In this document: one piece after another, positions 8,873 through 45,860 of the stretch
How positions within the stretch are numbered: the stretch's first letter is position 1
Layout: each line of letters opens with the position of its first letter
Source: an uncultured bacterium
Lineage (GTDB): Bacteria > Eisenbacteria > RBG-16-71-46 > CAIMUX01 > WJJG01
Assembly (NCBI GenBank): GCA_964417675.1
Contig: CAYQJL010000018.1
Coordinates: 16,760 to 80,759 of the forward strand
DNA: 64,000 bases
Reading direction: 5' to 3'
Program-made: the position numbers and the translations under genes
Notes under the pieces: generated by a model
The model's database searches: none
What the model was told of the DNA's origin: nothing
Seen by the model: the letters and a program-made list of their open reading frames with translations, nothing else

Positions 8873-10879
8873 TCAGGCGGATTGCCCGCGGGAGGAGAGG
8901 ACCGTAGCGATCAGATCCAGAATGCGGCGGCTGGCATCGCCGGGGCGTGCGCCATAGGTCCGCTCGATGAACTCCTCCCGGGCCGCCGGGCTGACCGTTG
9001 CGAATGTGTCGGTTTCCAGGAGGGTGCGCAGCAGGCGGTCCATAGAGGGACCATCCTGAATCGTGGGCAGTTCCTCAGGTATGGGAACGCTTCCGGACGC
9101 GGCCCCGCGGGGCCGGCGAATCCAGGCCGAGGGCACGCCGTGTAGCAACGCTTCGGCAACCTGCTCCGAGTCCGAGGTCATGACCAGATCCACCGCCGCC
9201 ATGCTCTCGGACAGGGCATCCTGCTGGATCAGGTGAATCCAGCGAAGACCGTTGGCGGCGGCCATCTGGCGTGCCGCCACCATCTCCCCGCGCAGCAGGC
9301 CCGGCAGACCGAGCACGAGGAAGATCCCGCGCCCACCCCTGCCGCTTGAGGCGAGCCAGGCCAGGACCTCCGGCAATTCCTGGCTCTGGCAGCCCAGATA
9401 GATCACCTTCTGATCCTCGTCCACGCCCCAGAGCCGCCGCAGGCGCTGGCGCTCACCGTCATCCCGGGAACCGGCCTCGGGCGCGCCCTCCAGTCGCGGG
9501 TCGCCGGTGACCACGACCTGCGCCGGCTCGAATGCTCCGCGCTCGACCAGCCGGCGTTTGGTCTCCGGGGTGTACACGCACAGGCTGTCGGGCAGGCAGA
9601 TGGCATGCGACCGGTCCGGCGGCGCAGACAGATAGGCATCGTCCCAGCGCTGCAGAGGCTGAGTCTGGAGAGCCACGGTGGGGATGTTCATCCGCCGCGC
9701 GGCCACCAACAGCGGCAGATTGGCATCCTGCTCGTGTGTGAGCAGGATGACATCCGGACGAATCCCCCGCAGAAAATGGGATTCCCGCCGCGTATCCCGC
9801 ACGAATTTCGGGAGCGCGCTGCGGGTGGCCTTGTCCAGCCAGTGCAACAGCAGCGCGGACATGTCCAGATCGTTGAACCGCAGCGACTCGACAAAGCCCT
9901 CCCGCTGCTTCAGGCGGTTCCATGTCCGCAGGATGCTGCGGGTCTCGCGGAACCCGCGACTGGTCTGCGCCAGCAGAAACAGGAAGTGCCTCAGATGAAC
10001 GGGCGCCAGAATTCCCGAGGTCATGGCCCCCACGTCCGGGTGATAGCTGTCGGAACGATAGTAGGGACGCAGCGGCTGGCGGCGCGCCGCGCGCCAGACC
10101 GATTCGAGATGGACATCCGTGCGGCCCCAGCGCCCGCCCGGGGCCAGGCGACGGCGCCAGCAGTTCGTATGCGAGACCAGCAGGACCTTCGGCTTGCGCA
10201 CAAAAATGTCGTCGAAGAGAAACTGGACGCCATGCCAGGCATCCTGCAGAAGGAAGAAGAGTTTGCGCATCCGGCGCTCGGCCATGGTCTCCTCGGGCAC
10301 GGGGGCGGGCGGCTCGACATACGCCAGGACAACCCGCAGGCGCAGGCCGAACTGGCGGGCCAGCTCGCGCAGCAGCATGCGCTGATCATCCGAAAGGCCC
10401 ACTGCCAACACGACCCTGTCGCGCTCCGCGAACATCCGCGCCATCGCCGTGCGCTGTGCGCCGATCTCGCACACCCAGCGGATGAGTCGGTCGCGAAGAA
10501 AGGCCCAGAAGCTGACATCTCCGGCGGAGAAGACCGTCCCGAAGTCCCAGCGTTGCGAGAGCTCATCGACCCAGGCGCGAGCCGCCTCGAGGGCGTCGTC
10601 GTCCGGTTCGGAGAACCGGCAATCCCCGCTGTGCCGGCAGAAGGCGCGCAGCCCGAAGAGCGGCGAGGGCACTTCCTGATAGCCGGCCGGCAGGCTGGCC
10701 ATCTCCCCGTCGGGCCAGAATGCGGGCAGCAACTGTCGCACCACGGAGGAGGACAGCAACGGATGCACCAGGAGCAGATCAGGATCAATCGAGGACGCTC
10801 GATCGCGATCATCCGCATAGTGGACATGATCGGGGAGCTGCCCGACCTCCTGGTGTGATGGATCTTTCGGTGTGTTCAT
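8873..10879 (-). CDS. polysaccharide biosynthesis protein, tentatively KpsC/LpsZ-like two-domain capsule-synthesis (beta-Kdo transferase) family
   Basis: 668 aa with a duplicated Rossmann-like architecture (VLLVSHTNCW..., DVILLTHEQDANLPLLVAARRMNIPTV..., LVMTSDSEQVAEALLHGVP). Size and locus context (GT2, GT4, OPX, Wzx) fit. Family assignment is unverified. Confidence 0.5.
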   Translation of the reverse strand: MNTPKDPSHQEVGQLPDHVHYADDRDRASSIDPDLLLVHPLLSSSVVRQLLPAFWPDGEMASLPAGYQEVPSPLFGLRAFCRHSGDCRFSEPDDDALEAARAWVDELSQRWDFGTVFSAGDVSFWAFLRDRLIRWVCEIGAQRTAMARMFAERDRVVLAVGLSDDQRMLLRELARQFGLRLRVVLAYVEPPAPVPEETMAERRMRKLFFLLQDAWHGVQFLFDDIFVRKPKVLLVSHTNCWRRRLAPGGRWGRTDVHLESVWRAARRQPLRPYYRSDSYHPDVGAMTSGILAPVHLRHFLFLLAQTSRGFRETRSILRTWNRLKQREGFVESLRFNDLDMSALLLHWLDKATRSALPKFVRDTRRESHFLRGIRPDVILLTHEQDANLPLLVAARRMNIPTVALQTQPLQRWDDAYLSAPPDRSHAICLPDSLCVYTPETKRRLVERGAFEPAQVVVTGDPRLEGAPEAGSRDDGERQRLRRLWGVDEDQKVIYLGCQSQELPEVLAWLASSGRGGRGIFLVLGLPGLLRGEMVAARQMAAANGLRWIHLIQQDALSESMAAVDLVMTSDSEQVAEALLHGVPSAWIRRPRGAASGSVPIPEELPTIQDGPSMDRLLRTLLETDTFATVSPAAREEFIERTYGARPGDASRRILDLIATVLSSRGQSA

Positions 10880-10916
10880 CCGCGCTCCCGATTCGCGGTC
10901 TGCGAGCCGACCCGAT

Positions 10917-11852
10917 TCAAGCGTCCCGGCCGAAGCGGCGCAGGCGACGCCTCTGCTGGCGACGCAGGAACTCCATTTCCTCCTGCTTCAGGAACCGGGC
11001 CTCCCTCTGGATCGCCGACCAGAGGAAACCGCACAGCATGGCAACCCCGCCCAGCAGGAACGGCGATTCGCGCAGCCCCGCCCGGACGGCCCGTCCCAGA
11101 AGGAACCACGGATCATACCCCAAACGCCAGGCGGTGTGTCCCAATCGCACGCGGCCCCGCAGGCGCCCACCCACCGAGGCGGTCGGCCGGCGGTGCCAAA
11201 CGCGTAGATCCGGGAAGCTGCGCGTGCTCCATCCGGCCATCTGCGCCCGAACCAGATCCAACGTGTCCCATCCCAGGCCGGCCTCGAGGCCGCCGATCGC
11301 CTCGAATGCCTCCCGGCGATAGGTTTTCAAGGCCCCGCGCACATGCCTGGCGGGCACACGCTCGAGCTGCTCCTTGGCTCCCCGGCGAAGATAGCAGGCC
11401 CCACCGGCGATGCCCAGCCGCGGATCATCGAGAAAACGCGCTGTCAGGCGGGCCAGGTAGTCCGGGGGCAGGACCAGATCCCCATCCATCTTGGTCACGA
11501 AATCGAACTGCGCGGGATCCACCTCCTGCAAACCCCGCCGAAACAGCTCGACGACGCGGCCGCCCAAGGCACGGCCGCCGGCCAGCCTGGCGCGGACCAG
11601 CTGCATGTGAGGTGCCCGACTCAGGTAGCGCTCCACGATCGCGACGGTGTCGTCGTCGGAACCGTCATCCACCAGGATCCACCGGACCGGCGGCAGGGTT
11701 TGCTTCAACATCGATTCGATCATGTCGCCGATGAACGCCGCCTCATTCTTGACCGGCGTCACGATCAGGTGCCGGCAACCCGGCCCGGGTCCCTCCGAAC
11801 GTTTCCGGCCGAGGTCCGCGACCCGGCGCTCTTTCTCTGGCCGCACTGACAT
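10917..11852 (-). CDS. family 2 glycosyltransferase
   Basis: GT2 signatures HLIVTPVKNEA, ILVDDGSDDDT, KMDGDL. Start ATG overlaps the stop of the upstream GT4 (translational coupling). Confidence 0.85.
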   Translation of the reverse strand: MSVRPEKERRVADLGRKRSEGPGPGCRHLIVTPVKNEAAFIGDMIESMLKQTLPPVRWILVDDGSDDDTVAIVERYLSRAPHMQLVRARLAGGRALGGRVVELFRRGLQEVDPAQFDFVTKMDGDLVLPPDYLARLTARFLDDPRLGIAGGACYLRRGAKEQLERVPARHVRGALKTYRREAFEAIGGLEAGLGWDTLDLVRAQMAGWSTRSFPDLRVWHRRPTASVGGRLRGRVRLGHTAWRLGYDPWFLLGRAVRAGLRESPFLLGGVAMLCGFLWSAIQREARFLKQEEMEFLRRQQRRRLRRFGRDA

Positions 11853-12877
11853 CACAGGCTCCCGCACCCCCCGCGGCCGGTGCGCGCCACCAGGTCGAGC
11901 CAGGCACGCTCGAATCGCTCGGGAGTGAACTGGGCGGCGAACCTGCGGCCCCGCGCGCCGACCTCCCGTGCCCAGGCCGGATCGCTGCGCAGTCGCCGCA
12001 GGATCGAGCGAATCTCCTCCGGGTCCTCGCTGGCGAACTGCCCGCCGCCCTCGAGGAGTTCCCGCATGCCGCCGCGCCCGGATCCGATCACCGGCGTCGC
12101 GCACATCATCGCCTCATGCGCGGAGATACACCATCCCTCATCGAACTGCGACAACAAGAGCGCGGCCTCGGCATGGTGCAGCAGCTTCAGGTAGTCCGGG
12201 TAGCTTCCCTCCACATTCGGACAGGGCAGCTCGATGCGCGGGCGCCCGCTGGTCACGGGTTGGAAATCCTCTCCGCGCAGGATCGCCAGGGCCCGCTCCG
12301 AGCCTTTGCCGCGGCCCCGGTTTCCGACGTACACGAGACGGCCCGGCGGCAAACCCAGACGCCGCCGAAACTCGGCGTCATCTTCGGTGGTCACACAGCC
12401 GAAATCCTGCGGGTCGATCGCGTTGTGGATGACGTGGACAGCTCTGCGGCCGCCGGCAAGAAGCCGCGCTTGCCAGTATCGACTGACGGTGACGATCGCG
12501 TCGATCTCGCGGAGGCGGTGGAGCGCCACGCGGTCGGCGATCTCATTGTAAAGGCGGTTCGGCTGCACCCGGGCGTCATGGTGATGCAGGAGAACGATCT
12601 GCGGCCCTTCGGTCTGCAGCGGCCCGAGAAAGGCCATTTCCCGAAAATCCCGAATCCACAGGTCCTTCTGTCCGTGGATGCGTTGAAGACGGCGGGCAAA
12701 GGCCACTCGCTCCACCACCTTCTCCAGCATTCCGGGCGGGCGTCGATCCTCAATCGCGAACAGCTCGACTTCATGACGGCGGCACAGGCAGTCGTAGAGA
12801 CGCCTGCGATAGGCCAATCCACCTCCAATGCCGGAGGGGGAAAGCAGATCATGCCTTGTGATGAAGCCGATTCGCAT
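11852..12877 (-). CDS. family 4 (GT-B) glycosyltransferase
   Basis: N-terminal MRIGFITRHDLLSPSGIGG. EX7E-type C-terminal region (CISAHEAMMCATPVIGSGRGGMRELLEGG). Confidence 0.85.
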   Translation of the reverse strand: MRIGFITRHDLLSPSGIGGGLAYRRRLYDCLCRRHEVELFAIEDRRPPGMLEKVVERVAFARRLQRIHGQKDLWIRDFREMAFLGPLQTEGPQIVLLHHHDARVQPNRLYNEIADRVALHRLREIDAIVTVSRYWQARLLAGGRRAVHVIHNAIDPQDFGCVTTEDDAEFRRRLGLPPGRLVYVGNRGRGKGSERALAILRGEDFQPVTSGRPRIELPCPNVEGSYPDYLKLLHHAEAALLLSQFDEGWCISAHEAMMCATPVIGSGRGGMRELLEGGGQFASEDPEEIRSILRRLRSDPAWAREVGARGRRFAAQFTPERFERAWLDLVARTGRGGCGSL

Positions 12878-21961: not shown

Positions 21962-22140
21962 GGCTCCTCCTCCACGCCGTCCGGCCGTCCGAACGGCCCA
22001 TGCGCGGCCGGCTGGCTGGCCGTCCAGATGGCCCGTGTGCGCGTGGCCATTGGCCGTCCATATGGCCCATGTGCGACCGGCTGGCCGGCGGAACGGCCCA
22101 TCTGCGACCGACTGGCCGGCCGAATGGCTCGTGGGCCTTC
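21962..22140. repeat. intergenic degenerate tandem repeats (about 5 copies of a ~33-bp unit GGCCGTCCAGATGGCCCATGTGCGACCGGCTGGCC)
   Basis: Direct repeats between the rpsA stop and the start of the membrane operon. Confidence 0.8.
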
Positions 22141-22323: not shown

Positions 22324-23610
22324 ATGAGGTCAGCTCTTCGGCCGTCCGTCGGTCGCGCTCCCCTCCCCGTCCCACCCCACACTCGCCGGCCGCATCTGCT
22401 GTCGCCCATGCTGGGCCTCGTCATGCTGGTCCTGCCGGGTGTGTGGCTGGGCCCGGCCGTGGCCCAGGACGCCGGTACGATGGACAGCGCTCCCGTTACC
22501 CCACCGGGCGACGTCGTCGCTCTGGATACCCCGAGCGATCGGGGACAGAGCATCACCGTGAGGTGGACCTGTCCAGCGGTGGACATTGGCCCCGGCGGCC
22601 CGGTCCTGGGGTATCGAATCGATCGAGCCACGACCCCACAGGGCCCCTTCGAGATGGTCGGGCAGGCCTCGCCGCTCGCGGGGCGCTATGACGATGTCGG
22701 CGCGCAAGACAGTGTCGAGTACTGGTACCAGGTGACGACGCTGGCTCTCGCGGGTGAGGCCTCATCCCCCCCGGTGGGGCCGGTGGTCGCGAAGCCGCAG
22801 TGGATCAACACGCGCCAGTGGAATGTCTTCCTGATCCTGGTCTTGCTCCTGGGTTTCAACATCTACTACATCGAGCACATCCGGGCCGGCGGCACCCCGT
22901 TCATCCGCAAGATCGCGGGGCTGGAGGCGGTCGCCGAGGCGGTCGGACGGGCCACGGAAATGGGCCGACCCATTCTCTTCGTGCCCGGCATTCAGGATAT
23001 GAACGATATCCAGACCGTCGCCGGAGTGACGATTCTGGGGCACATCGCCCGCACCGTGGCCGAATACGACTCGCGGCTGGTCGTTCCGACCAGTCGCGCA
23101 CTGGTCATGACCACCGCGCGCGAGACGGTCAAGGAGGCCTATCTCTCCGTCGGCCGGCCGGACTCCTACGACGAGAACTCGATCTACTACGTAACCGATG
23201 AGCAGTTCGGCTATGTAGCCGGGGTCAACGGCTACATGGTCCGGGAAAAACCGGCCACCTGCTTCTACATGGGCGCCTTCTTCGCGGAAAGCCTGATTCT
23301 CTCGGAAACCGGCAACTCGATCGGTGCGATCCAGGTGGCCGGGACCGCCATGCCCGCACAGCTGCCCTTCTTCGTGGCGTCCTGTGATTACACCTTGATC
23401 GGCGAGGAGCTCTTCGCCGCCAGCGCCTACCTGTCGGGGGAGCCCAAGCAACTCGGCAGCATCAAGGGACAGGATGTCGGCAAGTTGATCGGCATGATCT
23501 CGATCGTGGCGGGCGTCATCATCCTGACCTTGGCGGCCGTCACCGGTGTGGAGTTCATTCAAACCCTCGGGGACTGGGTACGCGCGTTCTGGTCCACCTC
23601 TTTGGCGTAA
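22324..23610 (+). CDS. uncharacterised membrane protein: signal peptide, FN3/Ig-like domain, TM, ~270-aa domain, C-terminal TM; paralogous core shared with the gene at 24345
   Basis: AAGGGAGAAA RBS. Region VAGTAMPAQLPFFVASCDYTLIGEELFAASAYLSGEP aligns with AGGCTAVQAPLMYPYYPDQMVGLMGGIKAGAEYEQLL of the third gene. Confidence 0.65.
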   Translation: MRSALRPSVGRAPLPVPPHTRRPHLLSPMLGLVMLVLPGVWLGPAVAQDAGTMDSAPVTPPGDVVALDTPSDRGQSITVRWTCPAVDIGPGGPVLGYRIDRATTPQGPFEMVGQASPLAGRYDDVGAQDSVEYWYQVTTLALAGEASSPPVGPVVAKPQWINTRQWNVFLILVLLLGFNIYYIEHIRAGGTPFIRKIAGLEAVAEAVGRATEMGRPILFVPGIQDMNDIQTVAGVTILGHIARTVAEYDSRLVVPTSRALVMTTARETVKEAYLSVGRPDSYDENSIYYVTDEQFGYVAGVNGYMVREKPATCFYMGAFFAESLILSETGNSIGAIQVAGTAMPAQLPFFVASCDYTLIGEELFAASAYLSGEPKQLGSIKGQDVGKLIGMISIVAGVIILTLAAVTGVEFIQTLGDWVRAFWSTSLA

Positions 23611-23622
23611 GGAGCATCGATC

Positions 23623-24306
23623 ATGAGGCGAACGGTTCCACTATTGATCACCGCCATCGTAGGCGGTGTGCTCGTGATCGCATATTTCATCCCGCATCCG
23701 CCCTTCGACGGCCTGCGGGAGGATTTCAGCATCTTCTTCGACATCATCGCCGCGGTCGCCTTCATCCTCGGGGGCGGCAACCTGATCAAGATGCACGGCA
23801 ACCGCATCAGCCGCCGGGAGAAGGGGTTCTTCTACAGCCTCGTCACGGTGGCCAGCTTCGTCATCGTCCTACTCATCGGGCTCCTGAAACTCGGCAATCC
23901 GGGAGGGTTCGGCAGCGGCACCTCGGTGGTCACCGAGGGCTCGGCCTTCCACTACGCCTACCAGTATGTCTTCCGGCCCTGCGCCGCAACGATGTTCGCG
24001 CTCCTGGCCTTCTATGTCGCCTCGGCCTCGTTCCGGGCCTTTCGGGCGAAGAACGCCGAGGCCACGATCCTCCTGCTGGTGGCCTTCACGATTCTCCTGG
24101 GACGCACCTTCGTAGGCGCGCTGGCGACGAGCTGGCTGCCGGACTCGTTGTACTTCCTCAAGATCCCCTATCTGGCCGACAAGATCATGGTCGTCCTGAA
24201 CTTCGCCGGCAATCGCGCCATCATGATCGGCATCGCGCTGGGAATCATCTCGACATCGCTGAAGGTCATCATCGGCATCGACCGGTCATACCTGGGCTCG
24301 GACTAG
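23623..24306 (+). CDS. polytopic membrane protein (5-6 TM), unknown function
   Basis: 13-bp spacing from the upstream gene. Hydrophobic helices throughout. Confidence 0.65.
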   Translation: MRRTVPLLITAIVGGVLVIAYFIPHPPFDGLREDFSIFFDIIAAVAFILGGGNLIKMHGNRISRREKGFFYSLVTVASFVIVLLIGLLKLGNPGGFGSGTSVVTEGSAFHYAYQYVFRPCAATMFALLAFYVASASFRAFRAKNAEATILLLVAFTILLGRTFVGALATSWLPDSLYFLKIPYLADKIMVVLNFAGNRAIMIGIALGIISTSLKVIIGIDRSYLGSD

Positions 24307-24344
24307 GGAGCAACCAAGGTGGCTCGGACTAAGGAGGAACCAAG

Positions 24345-25229
24345 GTGAGCAACGGGAACCTGGTCGAGAAGATCAACGAACTCGACAAACGCTGGGTTTT
24401 CCTCGCCATCGGCCTGGCCGTGGTGATCTCAACGGCCTTCGGCCTGACCTTCCCGGAGATTCCCACCCCCATGGTCAAGGCCATCTTCGACAAGGTCGAA
24501 AGCCTCCCGCGGGGATCGCGGGTGTTGCTGCCGTTCGACTACGATCCGGGGAGTGAGCCGGAGCTGCAACCGATGGCCGAGGCGTTCGTGCGCCATTGCG
24601 CCGAGCGCGGACTGAAGATGTACTTCATCGCCCTCTGGCCGCTGGGCCAACAGATGGTCGAGGGGGTCACCAATCGTTTGATCCAGATCGAGTATCCCGA
24701 TCTGGAGTATGGACAGGATTACATGGACTTCGGCTACAAGAGCGGGAACGAGGGCGTCATCGCCGTCATCCTGACCGATCTGCGCAAGCTCTATACGACC
24801 GATGCCCACGGCACTTCGATCGGCCGGGTCCCGATGATGCAAGGCATCACGAGCATCCGTGGATTCGACCTGATCCTGAATGTCAGCGCCGGATACCCCG
24901 GCATGAAGGAGTGGATCCAGTACGCCGGCACGCCCGGAAACATTCCGGTCGCCGGGGGCTGTACGGCCGTCCAGGCGCCGCTGATGTATCCCTACTATCC
25001 GGATCAGATGGTCGGGCTCATGGGCGGCATCAAGGCCGGCGCCGAATACGAGCAGCTCCTGATCGAGAAGTATCCGGAGTTTGCCGAAGACAAGCGTCGC
25101 TACACGACCGCCCTGATACGGATGGGCCCGCAGACGGTCACACATCTGGCGATCATCTTCTTCATCATCGTAGGCAACGTCACCTACCAGATCCTGCGCC
25201 GCAGACAAAATCTGCAGGGTCTGAAGTAG
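24345..25229 (+). CDS. bitopic membrane protein (N- and C-terminal TM flanking a ~230-aa extracytoplasmic domain), paralog of the first gene's core
   Basis: AGGAGG-type RBS. Architecture resembles GldG-like ABC-transporter auxiliary proteins. Unverified. Confidence 0.65.
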   Translation: MSNGNLVEKINELDKRWVFLAIGLAVVISTAFGLTFPEIPTPMVKAIFDKVESLPRGSRVLLPFDYDPGSEPELQPMAEAFVRHCAERGLKMYFIALWPLGQQMVEGVTNRLIQIEYPDLEYGQDYMDFGYKSGNEGVIAVILTDLRKLYTTDAHGTSIGRVPMMQGITSIRGFDLILNVSAGYPGMKEWIQYAGTPGNIPVAGGCTAVQAPLMYPYYPDQMVGLMGGIKAGAEYEQLLIEKYPEFAEDKRRYTTALIRMGPQTVTHLAIIFFIIVGNVTYQILRRRQNLQGLK

Positions 25230-25344
25230 AGGTCGCAAATCCGAGAGGCATGGGGGCACAGAGGTCTGGCCACGAGTGCCCGAGTGGAGAGCGGAGGGCC
25301 CATCGCCGCTGCGCGGGCCGGGATGATAGGACGAGGAGCCTGAC

Positions 25345-26142
25345 ATGAAGCGGATCATTTGGCTGGGGATTCTGGGCGTCACGACCCTGATCCTGATCGT
25401 GCGGACCATCGGCGGCGACATGCCCAATCCGTTCGGGTCGGCCGATGGGTTTGGGATCTGGCTGGCCGCCTGCTTGACGCTGGCGATCCTGAGTTTCCTC
25501 TACAATGACAATCCTCTCTACAAGTTCGCCGAACATCTCTTCGTGGGGGTCTCGGCGGCCTACTGGATGGTGATGGGTTTCTGGTCCACCCTGGTGCCCA
25601 ACCTGTTCGGCAAGCTGGCGCCGGAGACGACCGCCAAGATCTTCCTTCCCGGCATCGCCGGAACCGAGCGGGATCCACTCTGGTTCATGTATTTCATTCC
25701 CCTGATCTTCGGAGTCCTCTTACTGTTGAGGCTCTCGCCCAAGGGCGGCCACCTGTCGCGGTGGGCCTTGGCCTTCATTCTGGGAACGACGGCCGGATTG
25801 CGCCTGATCGCATTCCTGACCGCGGACTTCATGGGGCAGATTGGCTCGACCCTGAAGTCGGTCGCCGGTCTGACACCCGCGCTCCTGCCCGGCGGCCAGC
25901 CGACCTTCAGCTTCGAGGCGATGTTCTGGGATTTCATCGCGGTCATCGCAATCATGGCGGCGCTCTGCTACTTCTATTTCTCGAAGGCGCACACCGGGCT
26001 GTTCGGCAGGTTCTCCCGCCTCGGCATCTGGGTCTTGATGGTCACCTTCGGGGCCGGTTTTGGCTACACGGTCATGGGGCGTATCGCGCTGCTCGTGGGC
26101 CGGGTCGAGTTCCTGTTGGTGGAGTGGCTGCAGGTACTGTGA
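25345..26142 (+). CDS. polytopic membrane protein (6-7 TM), unknown function
   Basis: GGAG RBS. Last gene of a four-gene co-directional cluster. Confidence 0.65.
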   Translation: MKRIIWLGILGVTTLILIVRTIGGDMPNPFGSADGFGIWLAACLTLAILSFLYNDNPLYKFAEHLFVGVSAAYWMVMGFWSTLVPNLFGKLAPETTAKIFLPGIAGTERDPLWFMYFIPLIFGVLLLLRLSPKGGHLSRWALAFILGTTAGLRLIAFLTADFMGQIGSTLKSVAGLTPALLPGGQPTFSFEAMFWDFIAVIAIMAALCYFYFSKAHTGLFGRFSRLGIWVLMVTFGAGFGYTVMGRIALLVGRVEFLLVEWLQVL

Positions 26143-26228: not shown

Positions 26229-26340
26229 AAGCGCCGCGGGAAGGCCCTGCCGGGCAGGTCAGTCGTTGCGGGAAGGCCCTCCCGGGAAGGTCAGTCGTTG
26301 CGGGAAGGCCCTCCCGGGGAGGTCAGTCGTTGCGGGAGGG
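26229..26340. repeat. three tandem copies of a ~36-bp unit, each containing a short hairpin (cggga-aggccc-tcccg)
   Basis: gcgggaaggccctcccgggaaggtcagtcgttgcg x3. Overlaps the 3' end of the anti-sigma gene on the minus strand. Confidence 0.85.
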
Positions 26341-26985
26341 CCCCCGGCCGCGAGGTTTGGCATCGCTGTCCGGATCGGCCATCTCGTCGACCTCAATGTC
26401 GACCCGGCAATTCTCCAGGAGAACGCCCTCGAGCGCGAGCCGCTCGGTCGCGCCGTCTGCATCCAATGCAAAAGACAGCCCCAGCGAGGGGAAGGACAGC
26501 CGCGCCGGAACCTGCCCAGTCCGTAGAGAATGCTCCACGACGGCCCGGTATCCACCCCTATCCCCGGCGCGGTAGAAGCACACCTCGTACTGACCGTCAT
26601 CGCTGCGGCAGACCGCCAGGGGCGCCTCCGCCTGCCGCACGGGCTCCTTGGCCGCCAGGACGGGGCGGGCATCCTCCGCGGGACCGAACTCGAGTGGAAT
26701 GATGCGCCGGAGCGGACCGCGCCCCACAGTAGCACGCAGTTTGTCGCTGATCCCCTCGAGGACTTCCTCAACCAGCGCGTTGTCACCGTTGACGATCGCG
26801 TTGGGCGGGTCCTCTCCAGCACAGGGGATGACGGCGGCCGGCCGATGGGCCTTGACCGCTTCCGCGAATATCTCGCGGCATCGGTCACAGGCGGCAAGGT
26901 GATCGCTCAGCGACCTGCCTAGCGCGCGACTGCAGGTTCCGGCGATCAGCATCGCGATCTGCATATTTGACAAGCAGTTACTCAT
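26323..26985 (-). CDS. anti-sigma factor, zf-HC2 (HxxxCxxC) type, apparently cytoplasmic
   Basis: N-terminal SDHLAACDRCREIF zinc-finger motif of ECF anti-sigma factors. No TM segment visible. Downstream of the ECF sigma. Confidence 0.65.
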   Translation of the reverse strand: MSNCLSNMQIAMLIAGTCSRALGRSLSDHLAACDRCREIFAEAVKAHRPAAVIPCAGEDPPNAIVNGDNALVEEVLEGISDKLRATVGRGPLRRIIPLEFGPAEDARPVLAAKEPVRQAEAPLAVCRSDDGQYEVCFYRAGDRGGYRAVVEHSLRTGQVPARLSFPSLGLSFALDADGATERLALEGVLLENCRVDIEVDEMADPDSDAKPRGRGPSRND

Positions 26986-27204
26986 ACATTCACCACAGAG
27001 ACGATTGCCAGCTCGCCGATCCTCCCATCTTCTCTACGAGATCCGGCCCGCCTCTCTTCTGCCGATCGACAGGCCGCTCGCACAAAGGAAGGCTCACCCG
27101 AGCCACTGCCTCGCCTCCTCCCGCCGGTTTCTCTCCCGCCAGTCTCCGCTGGCCGGTCTCTCTACCGCTAGTCTCCGCCCGCGCGGATCCGGCCCCCAGA
27201 CTTC

Positions 27205-27771
27205 CTACTCCCCAACATCAAGGCAGGCCTGGCCCCGTAAGAACGTCCGGGCCCGGGCCAGACATGTGGCGACCGATCCGAGCGGCATGCCCAGGGACAT
27301 CGCAATCTCGGCATCCTTGAGGCCGGCCACATGCAGAAGCATGCAGACGCGGTCCTTGGGCCTCGGGATCTGCTCGATTCCGGCGGCCAGGCGCTCGACC
27401 TTCAGTCCATCATCGGCGCGCAACCGGCTGGGCGGCTCCGCTATGGAAACCAGATCCACTTCCTGCGCGCGGCGGCGGTTCGAGGCGCTCTTGAGCCAAT
27501 CCAACCAGTGGCGCACCGCGACGGTCTTCAGGAAGGTCTTCAGGGGGGCCCGGCTGGGCTCATACTGGCGCAAGACCCTGAACTCATCCCGGAGGAGCTT
27601 CTCCATATAACTCTGGAGAAGATCCTTGAGATCCTCTTCATTCGGAACCCGGCTGCGATACACGGGAAGAACGATCCGCAGCGCCGCCCGCGCAAACGCA
27701 TCGGCTTGCTCCGGCCGGCCGGCCAGGATGCCTCTCCACAGGCGCAGCCACTCCCGGTCGTCAATCGCCAT
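27205..27771 (-). CDS. ECF (group IV) RNA polymerase sigma factor
   Basis: Sigma-2 region (LLQSYMEKLLRDEF...) and sigma-4 HTH (KDRVCMLLHVAGLKDAEIAMSLGMPLGSVATCLARAR). The start overlaps the upstream gene's stop by 11 nt. Confidence 0.85.
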   Translation of the reverse strand: MAIDDREWLRLWRGILAGRPEQADAFARAALRIVLPVYRSRVPNEEDLKDLLQSYMEKLLRDEFRVLRQYEPSRAPLKTFLKTVAVRHWLDWLKSASNRRRAQEVDLVSIAEPPSRLRADDGLKVERLAAGIEQIPRPKDRVCMLLHVAGLKDAEIAMSLGMPLGSVATCLARARTFLRGQACLDVGE

Positions 27772-30064
27772 CGTTTCCCCGATCCCCGAACTCCGCATCC
27801 ATGATGATGGTGTCTCTACTGTAGAGGGATGCGCGGATATCCTCCTCGAACCGCTCCATCGCATCCGCTGGTAGCGAACCACTCTGCCGCAGCGCCCGCA
27901 CCCGGTGGCGAAAACTCTGGGCGAAGGTCACGTCAAGGACGGCGGCGGGGAGTCCCAGGGTGAGAATGATCGAGCATCCGGCCGCATTCATGGCCGCCAC
28001 GGTCTGAATCAATACCCGGTCGTTGCTGTCCGGCCCCGCGGACAGCTCGAAGAGTCCCAGCTGCTCGAAGGGGTTGTCGGGAACCTCCTCCATCCATGGG
28101 CGCAGCGGAAGGACGATGTGGCGGTAGCAGGGTTGCGCGCCGGGATCGAAAGAAAGCTCCTCGGTGCCATAGCGCGATGGTGGTTGCAGCTCGGCAGCCC
28201 CGTGAACGGTGTAGAAGTCCTCCACCTTGAGCACCAGCAGGCTCATCCCGCGGGTGGGGCCATGAAACCCCAGGGCGATGATCTCGCTACGGCCGTCGCC
28301 GTCCAGATCCCTGGCCGCCAGGTGCTCCAGATGGCCCGGATGTTCCAGCGACCGCTCGTGGTTGAAATCCTCGTCCAGGATCTGCAGCGCACAGCGCGCG
28401 GTCGGATTGAAAGTGATCGAGATCACGAGCTCCTGGTTGCCGTCCCCGTCCACATCCGCCACGAGACCTCGCTTCACGTTGTACAGATTGGCGGAGGTCT
28501 CGCGCACCGGAGCGTTCGGCAGCCAGGTCGAGACCGGCTGATACTTCGCCACCACTTGCCGGGTGGGAATGTGCAGGAGCATGACCCGCCCGTCTTTCCC
28601 ATCCTCGAAGTCTATGCTCTCGCCGAGCACCAGATAGGGACCCGGCCCCTTGAATCGCCCCACCTCCGGCACCAGCAAGGCAAATGCATATCGGCGCCCC
28701 TTCTCCGGCGTGAAATGCAGGTCCGCCATGCGCGGCACCCGCAACTGAAATCCGGCGCTGATGTGGCCGGGTGTGCTCACCTGCGCCAACTCCGGCGGCG
28801 GCCGCCAGAGGGGAAACCAGTACACTCCGATCTCATCGAGAAGACGCGGCGAGAGAAGCACCAGCCCCAATAGCATGATCGCCAGTATGCCGGCCGCGGC
28901 GAACCTCTGCAGCCGGGGCCGGCGGCAGGCCGCCAGGATCGCCGCCGGCACCTCGAGCGGGCACAGCAGCTGCGGGCGTTGAAACAGCTCGCGCAGGGTA
29001 CCGACCGTGTGGATCTCGCCCTCCCAGGCGATCTCGGCGGCAACCCGGCAGGCAAGATCCCCCTGGGTACGCGCCACGACAATGCCCGATAGGCCGGCCG
29101 CGCGCGCAACCTGAACCTTGGCCCGCAGCGAATCCGCGTCAACGTCCTGGACCTCCCCACTCGGGGAGAGCAGACCGGTCCAGGCCAGATCCGGCCGTGG
29201 CATCAGGCCGCGGCTGCGGCGCAGCAATCCGATCATGACGCCGCACATCGCGCTGCCCAACGCCAGCGAGACCGAACTGCCGGCCACCGGCATCTCCTTC
29301 TCGGGAAGGGAGAGCTCGAAGCCCAGGCGGTCGAGATCGATGCGGCCGAGCGCACGCCGGGACAACCCTTCGAGCGAACCGCCCGCGGCCGCGCACCGGC
29401 AGAGATCGTAGAGCGTATGACGCGCGATCATGCGGACATCGGCGGCCACATCTCCCAGGAGCCGGAGCCGATTGGAGCCACCCCCCAGGTTGGCATTGTT
29501 CCACACGACACGGGCATCCTGCGGTCCGAGCGCCCGCGCGGCCACTGTCACGGTGGTCAGGACGCCCAGATGGGGGACATCCGTCTCATGGGCGCCGGGC
29601 GGGAGCTCACAGACGAGCGGCACGGGCACCTGGATCAGAAAGGCACCATCGGCTCGCATCCCGGCCGGGGGCGCCGCGGAGGATGGCACAAGCCGCGCAA
29701 GGAGCGCAGCGACCTCCCCTTCCTCGATCTGCGCGTTTTCCCGGAGAAGGCCCAGGGCCTGCCGGAAAACGGCTGGCTCGGCCGAGTCCAAGGAGCAAGC
29801 CTGCGGTTCGCGCAGGGCGGCGACCAGGATCGCACCGGCCTCCTCCCAATAGGATGCGTACTCCCCGGCCGGGTTGGGAAGCGAGAGCAGGAAATTCGCG
29901 GCCGCCAGGGCCCGGGCCCGGGGCAGGCTGCACATCTGACAGAATGTGAGCAGGCGCTCGTAGGCGGCATCCACCTGATCGAAGCGATCCATCACGCTCC
30001 CAGCGCATCCGGAATCCACGGCCGCTACCGGCAGGGAACCATCACGGCATGGGTTGCATTCCAC
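27761..30064 (-). CDS. membrane protein with cytoplasmic Lon-like (S16) protease domain, single TM, and periplasmic FG-GAP/beta-propeller-like repeats
   Basis: ELSLPEKEMPVAGSSVSLALGSAMCGV...LAWTGLLSPSGEVQDVDADSLRAKVQVARAAGLSGIVVA aligns with Lon HVPEGATPKDGPSAGIAM...[36 protein letters not shown]. Ser and Lys dyad positions are conserved. TM AAAGILAIMLLGLVLL. C-terminal DVDGDGNQELVI and RDLDGDGRSEIIALG repeats. Confidence 0.6.
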   Translation of the reverse strand: MECNPCRDGSLPVAAVDSGCAGSVMDRFDQVDAAYERLLTFCQMCSLPRARALAAANFLLSLPNPAGEYASYWEEAGAILVAALREPQACSLDSAEPAVFRQALGLLRENAQIEEGEVAALLARLVPSSAAPPAGMRADGAFLIQVPVPLVCELPPGAHETDVPHLGVLTTVTVAARALGPQDARVVWNNANLGGGSNRLRLLGDVAADVRMIARHTLYDLCRCAAAGGSLEGLSRRALGRIDLDRLGFELSLPEKEMPVAGSSVSLALGSAMCGVMIGLLRRSRGLMPRPDLAWTGLLSPSGEVQDVDADSLRAKVQVARAAGLSGIVVARTQGDLACRVAAEIAWEGEIHTVGTLRELFQRPQLLCPLEVPAAILAACRRPRLQRFAAAGILAIMLLGLVLLSPRLLDEIGVYWFPLWRPPPELAQVSTPGHISAGFQLRVPRMADLHFTPEKGRRYAFALLVPEVGRFKGPGPYLVLGESIDFEDGKDGRVMLLHIPTRQVVAKYQPVSTWLPNAPVRETSANLYNVKRGLVADVDGDGNQELVISITFNPTARCALQILDEDFNHERSLEHPGHLEHLAARDLDGDGRSEIIALGFHGPTRGMSLLVLKVEDFYTVHGAAELQPPSRYGTEELSFDPGAQPCYRHIVLPLRPWMEEVPDNPFEQLGLFELSAGPDSNDRVLIQTVAAMNAAGCSIILTLGLPAAVLDVTFAQSFRHRVRALRQSGSLPADAMERFEEDIRASLYSRDTIIMDAEFGDRGNDGD

Positions 30065-30177: not shown

Positions 30178-31650
30178 TCATGGGTTGATCGGCCGCTTGG
30201 GTATCGCCGCCAGAAACTGAATCAGCTCCTCCACGCGCCGGCTCCATCCGGCCTGCCGGGCCAGCGCCAGCCGCTGTTGCACCTTGTTCTCCGACGGCGC
30301 CTCCGCCAGGCACGCGCGGATGGCGACTTCCAGCTCGTCCTGCGTGGCATACAGGTAGATGCAGTCCCGGTACGCCTTGAGCACACGACGGAAGGATGCC
30401 GCGATGGGCCGGCCGGTCGCGAGGTACTCGTATAGATTCAACCCCCGGACCGCCTCCAGGTGCGGCTCACGCCGGAGAGGCAAGATGAGGGCATCCGACG
30501 CGCCGACGATTTCGGCGGCCCGTTCCGGGCGCAGTGCCCCCAGGGGACGGATGCGCTCCGCGGGCAACCGCTGCAGGAGGGGAAGGCCGTCGGGACGAAC
30601 CTGCCCGACGAAGACAAAGAGCGGTTCAGGAACCGCCGCCATCATCGAGAGCAGATCTTCGTAAGAAATGCGGGCGTCCACATGCCCAAGGAAGGTGACC
30701 ATCGGACGCTCGGCGGGAATCTCCAACTCGCGCCGCAGGGCCTCGGCCCGCTCCTTGACGGTCGGATGGAAGAGGTCCAGATCGACCCCATGTTCAATGA
30801 CCGTCCGGGGGGCATCCGCGGCCAGATAACGGTCCCAGGATTCGATCATGTAGCGATGGTTCGCAATCATCCCGTCAGCACTCGGCAAGGCAACGCTCAG
30901 AGCCTCCCGATAGGCCTCGATGGCCGACCGCGAGGTGACCTGGGCCTCGAAATCCTCGCTGCAGTCGATGACCACCGGCACATTCGCCGCATTCTTGATG
31001 AACGGCACGAGCGCCGGGTGATCGCAATAGATGATCTCGGCCGCGAACGTCTCGCGCCCGGCACGGGCGCCCTTGCCCTGAACAATCTCCGAGGAAGGGC
31101 CGCCGACCAGGCGAACCACTTCCCGGCGGGCCATCTCCCCCCACAGCGCCCAGGCCTCCTTCAGCGTGGCGGCGTGGCGCACCTCGTCCGACTCGGGCAA
31201 CTCCCTCCGCCGCAGGTTCGTGGGGAGATCCACACCCCCCACGGCCTGCGCGAACGCCCCGTTGGATGGAGTCACCGGTGCGAACTCCGAGGAGCCGGCC
31301 GGGGGCGTGTCGGCCGGAGCCATGCCGGCCGGAGGCGTGTCGGCCGGAGCCATGCCGGCCGGAGGCGTGTCGGACGGAGCCATGCCGGCCGGAGGCGTGT
31401 CGGCCGGGGGCGTGTCGGCCGGAGCCATGCCGGCCGGGGGCGTGTCGGTTGCGGGTCTGTCGGCCGGAAGGGCGTCCCCCTGGGAAGGCGCTGCGGAGGC
31501 GAAGCGATCCGGTTCGTAGGCAGACCGGTAGGCGCTGGTCGGAGCCAGATACAGCACGTCATGTCCCTGGCGGGCCAGTCCGATCGCAAGCTGTTGCGGC
31601 CGGTGGCGCAGTCCGGCAAAGGGCGTATCCGTGACCATCAGAACCCGCAT
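30178..31650 (-). CDS. family 4 glycosyltransferase with an inserted Pro/Ala/Asp/Thr tandem-repeat low-complexity region
   Basis: GT4 N-terminus MRVLMVTDTPFAG...GHDVLYLAP. About 6 copies of PAGMAPADTP, from a 24-bp DNA repeat at about 31300-31450. GT-B C-terminal domain. Confidence 0.8.
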   Translation of the reverse strand: MRVLMVTDTPFAGLRHRPQQLAIGLARQGHDVLYLAPTSAYRSAYEPDRFASAAPSQGDALPADRPATDTPPAGMAPADTPPADTPPAGMAPSDTPPAGMAPADTPPAGMAPADTPPAGSSEFAPVTPSNGAFAQAVGGVDLPTNLRRRELPESDEVRHAATLKEAWALWGEMARREVVRLVGGPSSEIVQGKGARAGRETFAAEIIYCDHPALVPFIKNAANVPVVIDCSEDFEAQVTSRSAIEAYREALSVALPSADGMIANHRYMIESWDRYLAADAPRTVIEHGVDLDLFHPTVKERAEALRRELEIPAERPMVTFLGHVDARISYEDLLSMMAAVPEPLFVFVGQVRPDGLPLLQRLPAERIRPLGALRPERAAEIVGASDALILPLRREPHLEAVRGLNLYEYLATGRPIAASFRRVLKAYRDCIYLYATQDELEVAIRACLAEAPSENKVQQRLALARQAGWSRRVEELIQFLAAIPKRPINP

Positions 31651-31841
31651 CGCGATCCTCCCTGTTTGCGGCGAGCCCACCCCAAACGCGCTCGACCAAG
31701 GAAGCGATGATGGGACAACTTCCTGCCCTGGTCCAGGATGTTCTGGCGGCCGGCCCCCTTCGAGACGATCGCACGATCATGGAACAGGTCCGCCGTCGGC
31801 GGACGCCCAACGCACCAGGAAGGCAGGCATGCAGCAGGGGG

Positions 31842-44360: not shown

Positions 44361-44363
44361 CTT

Positions 44364-45821: not shown

Positions 45822-45860
45822 CGCCGCGGACGGACAGAGGAACCCACAGGCCCCCGGCCA

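Follow-up and report, generated by a model that had tools for sequence, protein, structure and literature searches.

The DUF6754 cassette: a conserved four-gene membrane module found in at least eight bacterial phyla

A four-gene operon of membrane proteins, g1 to g4, is present in the 64 kb window (the whole stretch of DNA analysed here) and represents a gene cluster that is strongly conserved in at least eight bacterial phyla. We name it the DUF6754 cassette, defined in this analysis as homologues of g1, g2, g3 and g4 in this order and tightly spaced. The explanation that we favour, and to which we give roughly even chances, is that the cassette encodes one hetero-oligomeric complex of the cytoplasmic membrane, ancient, widespread, uncharacterised and of non-ABC type, which would couple the cytoplasm to the envelope. 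That the four proteins form a physical complex is something we infer only from gene order and coupling. Sequence and profile searches of Pfam, NCBIfam and the PDB retrieved no characterised homologue of any of them, in keeping with the preliminary description of this DNA, which had proposed an undescribed envelope or transport module. The literature searched makes no mention of DUF6754 or PF20539, and describes no function, partner or operon. What would be new, by inference, is an envelope-associated membrane complex, a module that resembles no studied system.

The four co-directional open reading frames of the operon (Table 1) are separated by 12, 38 and 115 nt, in agreement with the cassette definition, and each is preceded by a GGAG-type Shine-Dalgarno sequence at a distance of 6-9 nt. 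ORF calling reproduced the coordinates and tight spacing of the preliminary description; hydropathy bears out its account of genes 2 and 4 as polytopic, and the transmembrane (TM) anchors that it placed on either side of a soluble domain are seen in both g1 and g3. Just downstream of the cassette, the opposite strand of the window carries a gene for an ECF sigma factor and a putative one for an anti-sigma factor.

Table 1. Features of the DUF6754 cassette in the window (positions of the 64 kb stretch)
Feature	Position	Strand	Description and basis
g1	22324..23610	+	428 aa; predicted signal peptide, periplasmic FN3, TM, probably cytoplasmic DUF6754, TM, short periplasmic tail
g1 predicted signal peptide, residues 1-47	22324..22464	+	read from sequence; predicted cleavage between AVA and QD
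g1 FN3 module, about residues 55-158, periplasmic	22486..22797	+	AF2, Foldseek, phmmer
g1 DUF6754	22792..23544	+	TM1, probably cytoplasmic alpha/beta part, conserved helical segment, TM2; Pfam, AF2
g1 residues 317-371	23272..23436	+	most conserved segment of the module; conservation over 34 sequences
g2	23623..24306	+	227 aa; 6 TM, N-in/C-in; ORF and hydropathy
g3	24345..25229	+	294 aa; TM, Rossmann-like alpha/beta domain, TM, RRR tail
g3 Rossmann-like domain, residues about 37-255	24453..25109	+	AF2 model
g4	25345..26142	+	265 aa; 7-8 TM; ORF and hydropathy

This gene order is kept well beyond the window. A neighbourhood survey, as the preliminary description had suggested, found g2, g3 and g4 following in order after 108 of the 113 g1 genes at loci with at least 3 kb of downstream sequence, with median intergenic gaps of 13, 3 and -1 nt in the cassettes. 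Relatives of g1 occur in at least 588 species of the genome collection. Identity to g1 is 52-83% across Eisenbacteria, Zixibacteria, Gemmatimonadota, Deltaproteobacteria-labelled and unclassified metagenome-assembled genomes, and Ignavibacteria, Planctomycetota and Acidobacteriota join the list through a genome scan, at 46-58%. All four families, g1 to g4, are strongly conserved across phyla. Many loci carry tandem paralogous copies of the cassette (often two to four, the full range being one to four), and two ancient paralogue types can be told apart.

The N-terminus of g1 displays, when read by eye, a basic n-region, a hydrophobic core (residues 29-47 in a Kyte-Doolittle-type profile) and a cleavage site between AVA and QD after residue 47, so that the signal peptide announced in the preliminary description can indeed be predicted from the sequence. 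An identical protein in NCBI (P0001, 400 aa) begins 28 codons downstream of the 428-aa g1 start; relatives with 82-83% identity are 428 aa long and cover 100% of the query. The module that comes next had been labelled FN3/Ig-like, and its model places it in the FN3 fold: AF2 predicts a beta sandwich with a pLDDT of about 85-96, Foldseek matches it to the FN3 domains of titin and Robo in the PDB with a probability of 1.0 (TMt up to 0.78), and phmmer reaches titin FN3 at E=0.004. The Pfam fn3 model (PF00041) has no match in g1 at E≤1, and one g1 homologue carries a weak precomputed fn3 match.

Residues 157-407 of g1 match DUF6754 with E=1.2e-120 (401.9 bits against a cut-off of 27), and more than 8000 homologous g1 protein clusters are on record. 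In the AF2 model the domain runs beta-alpha-beta-alpha-beta and then continues as helices; across phyla and paralogues its columns are on average 64% identical. Because it comes after the periplasmic FN3 module and one TM helix, the DUF6754 domain is probably cytoplasmic. Residues 317-371 (GAFFAES...CDYTLIGEELFAASAYLS) have a mean top-residue frequency of 0.91 over 34 sequences, with zero lysine or arginine, five invariant or near-invariant acidic residues and a moderately hydrophobic character. AF2 models the DUF6754 core badly, pLDDT falling below 50 at residues 317-368.

In g2 and g4 the cytoplasmic loops are the conserved ones (0.75-0.79 versus 0.35-0.44 for periplasmic loops in g2, and 0.66-0.82 versus 0.14-0.35 in g4), those of g4 being basic as well. 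The TM3-TM4 loop of g2 varies, and since it has received an FG-GAP propeller in the homologues at two loci (L013 and L014) it can be placed outside, in the periplasm. The AF2 model of g3 is of high quality (pLDDT 93.2, pTM 0.88), and Foldseek finds for it generic Rossmann-like matches only in the PDB (TM≤0.44). Flanking charges, following the positive-inside rule, suggest that this Rossmann-like domain is probably periplasmic. Invariant residues of its family lie in a GYKSGNEG stretch and, following the first strand, in a DYDP-SEPE stretch. Extracytoplasmic domains had been claimed for both genes 1 and 3: for g3 this probably holds, while the topology of g1 speaks against it. No Pfam or NCBIfam family was found for g3 among 41 members or for g2 (window protein, Pfam being searched also over 35 homologues), nor any Pfam, NCBIfam or PDB match for g4 (Pfam models also over 35 homologues).

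An internal duplication of the operon (g1 related to g3, g2 to g4) is rejected by both BLASTP and profile-profile comparison. The best BLASTP hit between g1 and g3 has an E value of 2.3, and with profiles of more than 130 sequences hhalign reaches a probability of 2.1%, with a second run at 8.6% where the alignment is a single TM helix; for g2 and g4 the figures are E 0.63, and 0.4% and 0.2%. Profiles built with jackhmmer produced no cross-match between g1 and g3 or between g2 and g4, and the only ORF matched by two families is a g3-g4 fusion. The paralogous domain ascribed to genes 1 and 3 does not stand up, this being the outcome that the preliminary description itself had named as its disproof.

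A clue to what may energise the cassette comes from its neighbours in other lineages. In 34 of 81 genome loci it adjoins genes for a PF13941 MutL protein (E=1e-128) and for a 375-aa protein, a pair placed directly upstream in most such loci and divergently transcribed in a few. The pair adjoins the cassette in 11 of 13 Planctomycetota and in 3 of 3 Acidobacteriota, in many Zixibacteria the cassette comes directly after it, and at one locus (L076) the two proteins are fused into one. The ATPase scores 239 bits, the equivalog cut-off being 475, and belongs to the GlmL/MutL (hydantoinase-A-like) branch of ASKHA ATPases; the 375-aa protein has a barrel-sandwich-hybrid N-terminus, a middle part that looks Rossmann-like by eye, and a weakly KOW-like C-terminus. 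Where an energising partner is encoded nearby, it is this GlmL/MutL-type ASKHA ATPase and not an ABC ATPase. The same pair sometimes heads a tolQRAB-pal-cpoB operon, with Tol genes adjoining it at L037, L042 and L049; among metagenome loci centred on the 375-aa gene, 57 extend 1.5 kb or more downstream of it, and the next element is the cassette in 36 of these and tolQRAB-pal in 6. This link to Tol-Pal, about 12 loci, could be lineage-specific synteny. Both partner families are absent from the 64 kb window (tblastn, E≤1e-3), two Eisenbacteria relatives (L082 and L084) have neither within 10 kb of the cassette, and for the window and Eisenbacteria relatives together no GlmL-like, 375-aa or Tol gene lies within 10-40 kb; the partner link may therefore not apply here. 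Nor does the pair adjoin the cassette at any of the Gemmatimonadota, Eisenbacteria and 'Deltaproteobacteria' loci examined.

Put together, the complex that we favour would present two faces. The cytoplasmic one would be conserved, made of the g1 DUF6754 domain with its invariant acidic segment devoid of lysine and arginine, and of the basic loops of g2 and g4. The periplasmic one would be variable, made of the g1 FN3 module, the g2 loop (which in some paralogues gives way to an FG-GAP propeller) and the Rossmann-like domain of g3. From this contrast it follows that the complex most likely couples an event in the cytoplasm with a periplasmic or envelope activity. The event might be docking or the nucleotide cycle of the ASKHA and barrel-sandwich pair, where present, and the activity might be transport, or assembly or maintenance of envelope components, in the functional area of Tol-Pal. 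In the present genome the cassette would act as a stand-alone operon, any partner being encoded elsewhere or dispensable. A bolder version, which we put forward tentatively, makes the cassette the membrane core of an ancient and so far unrecognised trans-envelope machine that a GlmL-type ASKHA (actin-fold) ATPase and a barrel-sandwich adaptor drive or regulate, in the same process as Tol-Pal; if true, this machine would act in outer-membrane constriction and in envelope or lipid homeostasis. To our knowledge, Planctomycetota have no FtsZ, and since this phylum carries the cassette, the latter could belong to its division or envelope-remodelling apparatus.

Other explanations need to be weighed. 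The layout of g3, with a putative periplasmic alpha/beta domain between two TM helices, is GldG-like, and bitopic and polytopic genes alternate in the operon, so that an exporter of the GldF/GldG or another ABC-2 type might be envisaged, with g2 and g4 as permeases, g1 and g3 as bitopic auxiliaries and the ATPase encoded elsewhere. Sub-threshold TMD0_ABC matches in 11 of 35 g2 homologues (best E=8.7e-5; one of them scoring 16.8 bits against a cut-off of 27) go in the same direction. Yet no ABC2_membrane or ABC_transp_aux match was obtained at E≤1 with g1-g4 of the window or with homologues of g2 (35), g4 (35) and g3 (41); at the same threshold PF09822 is unmatched by g1, g3 or the g3 homologues, and PF01061, PF12698 and PF12679 by g2, g4 or their homologues. 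The searches did recognise a true ABC-2 system in the window: ORFs 44364-45821 and 43026-44360 match ABC-2 models with E about 1e-31, and they are the two permeases of the sole ABC ATPase of the window (45861-46802, minus strand). No ORF combining Walker A and LSGGQ lies near the operon in the 64 kb window, as the preliminary description had stated in noting the absence of an adjacent ATPase, and clustering of neighbouring ORFs over 81 genome loci yields no ABC ATPase among recurrent families, the recurrent ATPase being of the ASKHA type. At the level of sequence the GldG/GldF-like pairing first proposed is largely refuted, and we leave the exporter hardly any probability.

The cassette might instead work on its own as an ion-coupled secondary transporter or ion-translocating complex, with g1 residues 317-371 embedded in the membrane and lining an ion or substrate path with g2 and g4, the GlmL-like pair being a lineage-specific accessory. 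This would fit the composition and 91% conservation of the segment, its weak match to PsaL helices, which are of TM type, the stand-alone cassettes of Eisenbacteria, Gemmatimonadota and 'Deltaproteobacteria' loci, and the several paralogous copies per genome, typical of transporters with different substrates. It is made rather doubtful by the lack of similarity to transporter families in Pfam, NCBIfam and the PDB, by g2 and g4 having no invariant intramembrane acidic residue, and by AF2 giving the segment, with low confidence, four short helices and not TM spans. We consider unlikely an enzyme complex or scaffold, bound to the membrane, that would make or modify an envelope polymer or lipid and in which g3 and DUF6754 would bind a ligand or be catalytic: the searches (Pfam, NCBIfam, Foldseek for g3) revealed neither a catalytic motif nor an enzyme family, and the GT-B glycosyltransferase C-terminal domains present among the g3 Foldseek matches have the low TM-scores given above. 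The invariant stretches of g3 would suit an active or binding site, Eisenbacteria cassettes sit amid polysaccharide-synthesis and glycosyltransferase genes, and at L085 and L088 plsX and fabH come after the cassette; but the envelope genes in its neighbourhood lie on the other strand or are particular to a lineage, and no recurrence is seen from phylum to phylum. A trans-membrane sensing device, neither transporter nor motor, whose periplasmic FN3 and FG-GAP domains would relay an envelope cue to the cytoplasmic domain, agrees with variable periplasmic and conserved cytoplasmic parts, and with the sigma and anti-sigma genes next to the window operon. These neighbours are not conserved in other phyla, Pfam and NCBIfam searches showed in g1-g4 no output domain of a known kind (kinase, cyclase or anti-sigma), and 50-80% conservation across phyla in a four-subunit stoichiometric operon is unusual for sensors, which renders this reading very improbable.

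Comparison with known systems helps to situate the complex that we favour. PF20539, under the database label 'fibronectin type III domain-containing protein', is catalogued only as a domain of unknown function, of which g1 is a full-length, high-scoring member; neither Pfam nor NCBIfam has any model for g2, g3 and g4. In pairs of the GldF/GldG or another ABC-2/ABC_transp_aux kind, polytopic proteins are encoded next to a bitopic one whose alpha/beta domain, as is probable for that of g3, is periplasmic and lies between two TM helices; the cassette differs in matching none of the four corresponding Pfam models, in having no linked ABC ATPase, and in its second bitopic subunit, g1, which probably carries its conserved domain in the cytoplasm. 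The 375-aa partner recalls the N-terminal module of NqrA and RnfC (Na+-NQR, RNF) through weak matches to RnfC_N, NQRA_N and Biotin_lipoyl at its N-terminus, found in 10-18 of 23 members and all below curated thresholds; unlike in those complexes, it has no Fe-S or flavin motif, and g1-g4 are unrelated to NqrB-E and RnfADEG. With Tol-Pal (TolQRA-TolB-Pal-CpoB) the cassette shares the design of a multi-subunit inner-membrane module with periplasm-facing domains, and at no fewer than 12 loci the GlmL-like and 375-aa pair, which more usually comes before the cassette, heads tolQRAB-pal, sometimes with cassettes in divergent orientation beside it. This link is one of genomic context only, since the cassette members scanned have no MotA_ExbB, ExbD or TonB match (PF01618 and PF02472 are unmatched by g2, g4 or 35 homologues of each). 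Finally, in many phyla the operon logic is that of MreB-MreC-MreD and PilM-PilN-PilO, with the gene of a cytoplasmic ASKHA protein first and those of bitopic and polytopic membrane proteins after it. The cassette-linked ATPase is of the GlmL/MutL branch, unlike MreB, FtsA or PilM, and its membrane partners have no kinship with the proteins of those systems.

Genes g1 to g4 form a conserved four-gene membrane cassette that is not of the ABC type and has no characterised homologue. As the preliminary description had it, they are co-directional and tightly spaced (12, 38 and 115 nt between the called ORFs), and each is preceded, at 6-9 nt, by a ribosome-binding site of the GGAG type. The genes for IF-1 and ribosomal protein S1 lie 5' of them on the same strand, with those for PhoU and a Na/Pi cotransporter farther upstream on the opposite strand; on the 3' side are found genes for an ECF-type sigma factor, an FG-GAP-repeat protein and also a glycosyltransferase, all on the opposite strand (see the table). 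With this layout on both flanks, g1-g4 look like a self-contained operon. A Rfam scan of the operon returned nothing real, and matches to promoter and terminator consensus sequences were no more numerous than expected by chance. As GC content (about 0.61-0.69) is even over the whole window, g1-g4 are not a compositional island, and an origin from a mobile element or island was rejected.

The spacer between the S1 gene and g1 carries an imperfect tandem repeat (period ~34 nt, 4.1 copies, 70% matches, consensus GGCCGTCCAAATGGCCCATGTGCGACCGGCTGGCT), the core of which is unique to that site in the window (3 matches against 0 expected). In L082 and L084, two relatives from Eisenbacteria, a spermine-synthase-like gene stands in its place, on the minus strand, of which the window retains no detectable remnant. 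The set made of the sigma factor gene, the 220-aa ORF and the FG-GAP gene (26323-30064) is not kept beside the cassette in other phyla. The glycosyltransferase, of the GT4/GT1 type, begins with a proline-rich tandem peptide repeat (...DTPPAGMAPADTPPAG..., several copies), the cause of a spurious Extensin-like Pfam match.

Coordinates of the cassette and of other features in the window
Feature	Position	Strand	Product	Remark
S1-g1 spacer repeat	21983-22122
g1	22324-23610	+	428 aa	ORF
g2	23623-24306	+	227 aa	ORF
g3	24345-25229	+	294 aa	ORF
g4	25345-26142	+	265 aa	ORF
ORF in anti-sigma position	26323-26985	-	220 aa	no Pfam family; adjoins ECF sigma factor gene
ECF-type sigma factor gene	27205-27882	-		downstream of g1-g4, convergent
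FG-GAP-repeat protein	27761-30064	-	767 aa	downstream of g1-g4
Glycosyltransferase	30178-31680	-
ABC-2 permease	43026-44360	-		ABC-2 models, E ~1e-31
ABC-2 permease	44364-45821	-		ABC-2 models, E ~1e-31
ABC ATPase	45861-46802	-		sole ABC ATPase in the window

The g1 product is made, in order, of a signal peptide, an FN3 module, a TM helix, DUF6754 (Pfam match at E=1.2e-120) and a second TM helix. The signal peptide, read from the sequence, has a basic n-region, a hydrophobic core and AVA/QD after residue 47. The FN3 module, recognised from the outset, is modelled by AF2 at a pLDDT of ~90 and matched by Foldseek to titin and Robo FN3 domains (probability 1.0, TM-scores up to 0.78), titin FN3 being also found with g1 by phmmer (E=0.004). 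Since this exported module precedes the TM helix, topology implies that DUF6754 must be cytoplasmic, and not extracytoplasmic as the preliminary description proposed; its core is of low confidence in the AF2 model, with no fold assignable. In g3, a domain of ~220 aa stands between two TM helices, the second followed by an RRR tail, and the AF2 model (pLDDT 93.2, pTM 0.88) displays a Rossmann-like alpha/beta fold, for which the PDB returned generic Rossmann proteins alone, at TM-scores of at most 0.44. Flanking charges suggest that g3 is N-in/C-in, with a periplasmic domain. Both g2 and g4 are polytopic, as described, with six TM helices in g2 and 7-8 in g4. Among the loci fetched from other genomes and metagenomes, L013 and L014 have g2 homologues with an FG-GAP propeller inserted in the TM3-TM4 loop, which places this loop in the periplasm and makes g2 N-in/C-in, in agreement with the positive-inside rule. 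These are 591-aa proteins, each belonging to a third cassette copy of divergent type (L013 15154-16929, L014 14938-16716); the g2 of locus L032 carries, at the same site, a ~390-aa insertion unrelated to the FG-GAP one.

An internal duplication, with a paralogous domain shared by g1 and g3, did not withstand comparison: the best BLASTP E-value was 2.3, and hhalign gave a probability of 2.1% with profiles that each contained more than 130 sequences, a second run giving 8.6% with one TM helix aligned and nothing more. Paralogy of g2 and g4 was rejected too (BLASTP E=0.63, hhalign 0.4% and 0.2%). No cross-hit between g1 and g3 or between g2 and g4 came from jackhmmer profiles, and the sole ORF matched by the profiles of two families is a g3-g4 fusion. 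The membrane probably separates the soluble domain of g1 from that of g3. In the AF2 models both open as helix-strand-helix-strand-helix-strand with elements of similar length, a likeness that, as modelled, is the generic doubly-wound or Rossmann-like pattern and no proof of paralogy.

The g1 family comprises more than 8000 homologous clusters. One NCBI protein (P0001) is identical to g1 of the window; the best named matches belong to Candidatus Eisenbacteria (74-78% identity), the closest relatives, without a name, reach 82-83%, and homologues from unclassified MAGs or labelled Zixibacteria, Gemmatimonadetes or Deltaproteobacteria are at 52-59%. A genome scan restricted to one genome per species was positive in at least 588 species, spread over Zixibacteria, Ignavibacteria, Eisenbacteria, Gemmatimonadota, Planctomycetota (Gimesia, Phycisphaerae, Isosphaeraceae), Acidobacteriota, Coatesbacteria, Marinimicrobia and 'Deltaproteobacteria' MAGs, with identities of 46-58% in Ignavibacteria, Planctomycetota and Acidobacteriota. 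When jackhmmer was applied to 81 fetched loci, homologues of g2, g3 and g4 followed g1 in the same order for 108 of the 113 g1 genes with 3 kb or more of sequence on their 3' side, at median gaps of 13, 3 and -1 nt. The remaining five comprise a g3-g4 fusion, two split-gene fragments (L039), L025, where g2 alone was recovered after g1, and L048, of a different architecture. In the latter, a 795-aa DUF6754 protein (9995-12382) fused at its C-terminus to a Peptidase_S49/NfeD-like ClpP-fold protease domain (E=1e-43) stands alone without g2-g4, on a Zixibacteria chromosome that has normal cassettes as well (L065, L070).

Zixibacteria and Ignavibacteria usually have 2-4 tandem copies of the cassette, and these represent at least two paralogue types of ancient origin; the single copy of the window is of the main type, and L082 and L084 keep the local synteny with a single stand-alone cassette. 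The tandem cassettes of these two phyla are followed by genes for a ~105-aa basic protein and pyruvate phosphate dikinase (L013-L015, L021, L023, L036, L037, L039, L040, L042, L046, L049, L065, L080), probably a matter of lineage synteny. Conservation is unevenly distributed across the membrane. Mean column identity in DUF6754 is 64% across phyla and paralogues, and residues 317-371 of g1 (GAFFAES...CDYTLIGEELFAASAYLS), with five acidic residues and no K or R, are 91% conserved; AF2 confidence is lacking exactly there, which would fit an interface or an element embedded in the membrane that may need partner subunits. In g2 and g4, the loops predicted to be cytoplasmic are basic and well conserved (0.66-0.82), those predicted to be periplasmic poorly conserved (0.14-0.44) and tolerant of large insertions, so that the module appears to present a constant face to the cytoplasm and a variable one to the periplasm.

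A GlmL-type ASKHA ATPase and a barrel-sandwich protein are often encoded next to the cassette, and provide an occasional link between it and Tol-Pal. When neighbouring ORFs were clustered, the dominant recurrent neighbour, in 34 of the 81 loci, was a pair made of a ~615-aa MutL-like protein (Pfam MutL, PF13941, E=1e-128; 239 bits against NCBIfam GlmL, under the equivalog cut-off of 475) and a ~375-aa protein. The latter has an N-terminal barrel-sandwich hybrid, with weak matches to Biotin_lipoyl (18/23), RnfC_N (16/23) and NQRA_N (10/23), and weak KOW matches at its C-terminus (5/23 members). The pair stands directly 5' of g1 in many loci (gaps of ~0-10 nt) and is divergent in a few; it adjoins the cassette in 11/13 Planctomycetota, 3/3 Acidobacteriota and 12/25 Zixibacteria loci, and is fused as one protein in L076. 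Reciprocally, the 375-aa gene was used to anchor 80 metagenome loci, 57 of which had 1.5 kb or more of sequence on its 3' side; directly 3' of that gene came the cassette (36/57), tolQ-tolR-tolA-tolB-pal-cpoB (6/57) or something else (15/57). Where there was enough sequence to tell, the GlmL-like gene stood immediately 5' of it (30 of 36 loci). Individual annotated neighbourhoods agree with this picture. Tandem cassettes are arranged divergently to GlmL-375-tolQRAB-pal in L037, L042, L049, L089, L145 and L156.

The pair heads tolQ-tolR-tolA-tolB-pal-cpoB in L086 (6124-13872) and L089 (7362-17653), and the same arrangement is seen in L037, L042 and L049 (minus strand), L127, L142, L145, L148 and L156; we know of no earlier description of a tol-pal operon that includes an ASKHA ATPase gene. 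A nucleotidyltransferase/HEPN toxin-antitoxin pair lies between the MutL-like and 375-aa genes in L001 (4259-4878) and L087 (7262-7973). Two small proteins are encoded recurrently 5' of the GlmL-like gene, one of ~130 aa (15 loci: L041 6421-6822, L063 6610-6951 and 13 more), the other of ~150 aa with two hydrophobic helices (8 loci: L024 2984-3436 and 7 more). Neither belongs to a Pfam or NCBIfam family, and they may represent further parts of the system.

The pairing of g1-g4 was initially likened to GldF/GldG, that is, an ABC-2 permease with ABC_transp_aux. No match to ABC2_membrane or ABC_transp_aux was found at E<=1 for g1-g4, nor any among 35 g2, 35 g4 and 41 g3 homologues. The window supplies an internal positive control for ABC-2 detection, a complete and separate exporter operon (43026-46802) ~17 kb from g1-g4 (20 kb to the ATPase gene), and judged by it the sequences of g2 and g4 are not those of ABC-2 proteins, so far as profiles tell. 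Weak TMD0_ABC matches of g2 homologues were below cut-off and treated as TM-bundle noise. That the cassette is an ABC-2 or GldFG-like exporter seems to us extremely improbable. In the PDB, sequence and profile searches returned nothing significant for g1, DUF6754 alone, g2-g4, the 375-aa protein or its GlmL-like neighbour, and with DUF6754 alone, g2 and g4 no profile match was better than E=0.4. NCBIfam had no match for g1-g4; no member of the 375-aa family reached a Pfam model above threshold, and one representative was without NCBIfam match. In the literature searched, DUF6754, PF20539 and PF13941 are unmentioned, 'GlmL' gave noise alone, and nothing was found on ASKHA with glutamate mutase or on Tol-Pal with hydantoinase.

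We favour a general picture, to which we give an even chance, where the four products would assemble as one complex. Towards the cytoplasm, its conserved face would engage a soluble partner; towards the periplasm, the variable one (FN3, FG-GAP, Rossmann-like domain) would act on an envelope component or substrate. The stronger reading, a Tol-Pal-related, ASKHA-driven envelope machine, is proposed tentatively, as clearly the less probable of the two, and has to be set beside the 64-kb window itself, where there is no GlmL-like, 375-aa or Tol homologue. Such stand-alone cassettes would suit a self-sufficient ion-coupled transporter, which is nevertheless an unlikely solution. A membrane-bound envelope-biosynthesis enzyme or scaffold is distinctly unlikely, and a sensor, with exported FN3 and FG-GAP domains on one side and a constant cytoplasmic face on the other, very improbable.

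To come back to the favoured complex, identities of ~50-80% across Eisenbacteria, Zixibacteria, Ignavibacteria, Gemmatimonadota, Planctomycetota, Acidobacteriota and others witness strong selection on a four-subunit membrane assembly. It is often triplicated, with its thousands of protein clusters, yet no subunit has a studied homologue, and three of the four (g2-g4) are without any Pfam or NCBIfam model despite their wide conservation. The ASKHA pairing, and the fact that this pair occasionally leads a tol-pal operon, suggest an envelope system not described so far, in mostly uncultured or poorly studied phyla; it can be tested now, as Gimesia-type planctomycete MAGs have the full seven-gene version. 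To our knowledge, the GlmL/MutL-type ASKHA family is otherwise known solely as an accessory of B12-dependent mutases. The g1 family is already catalogued, as a domain of unknown function only; the module, with a function deduced solely from anatomy and genomic context, we rate as new in kind, because it displays the defining feature of no known system.
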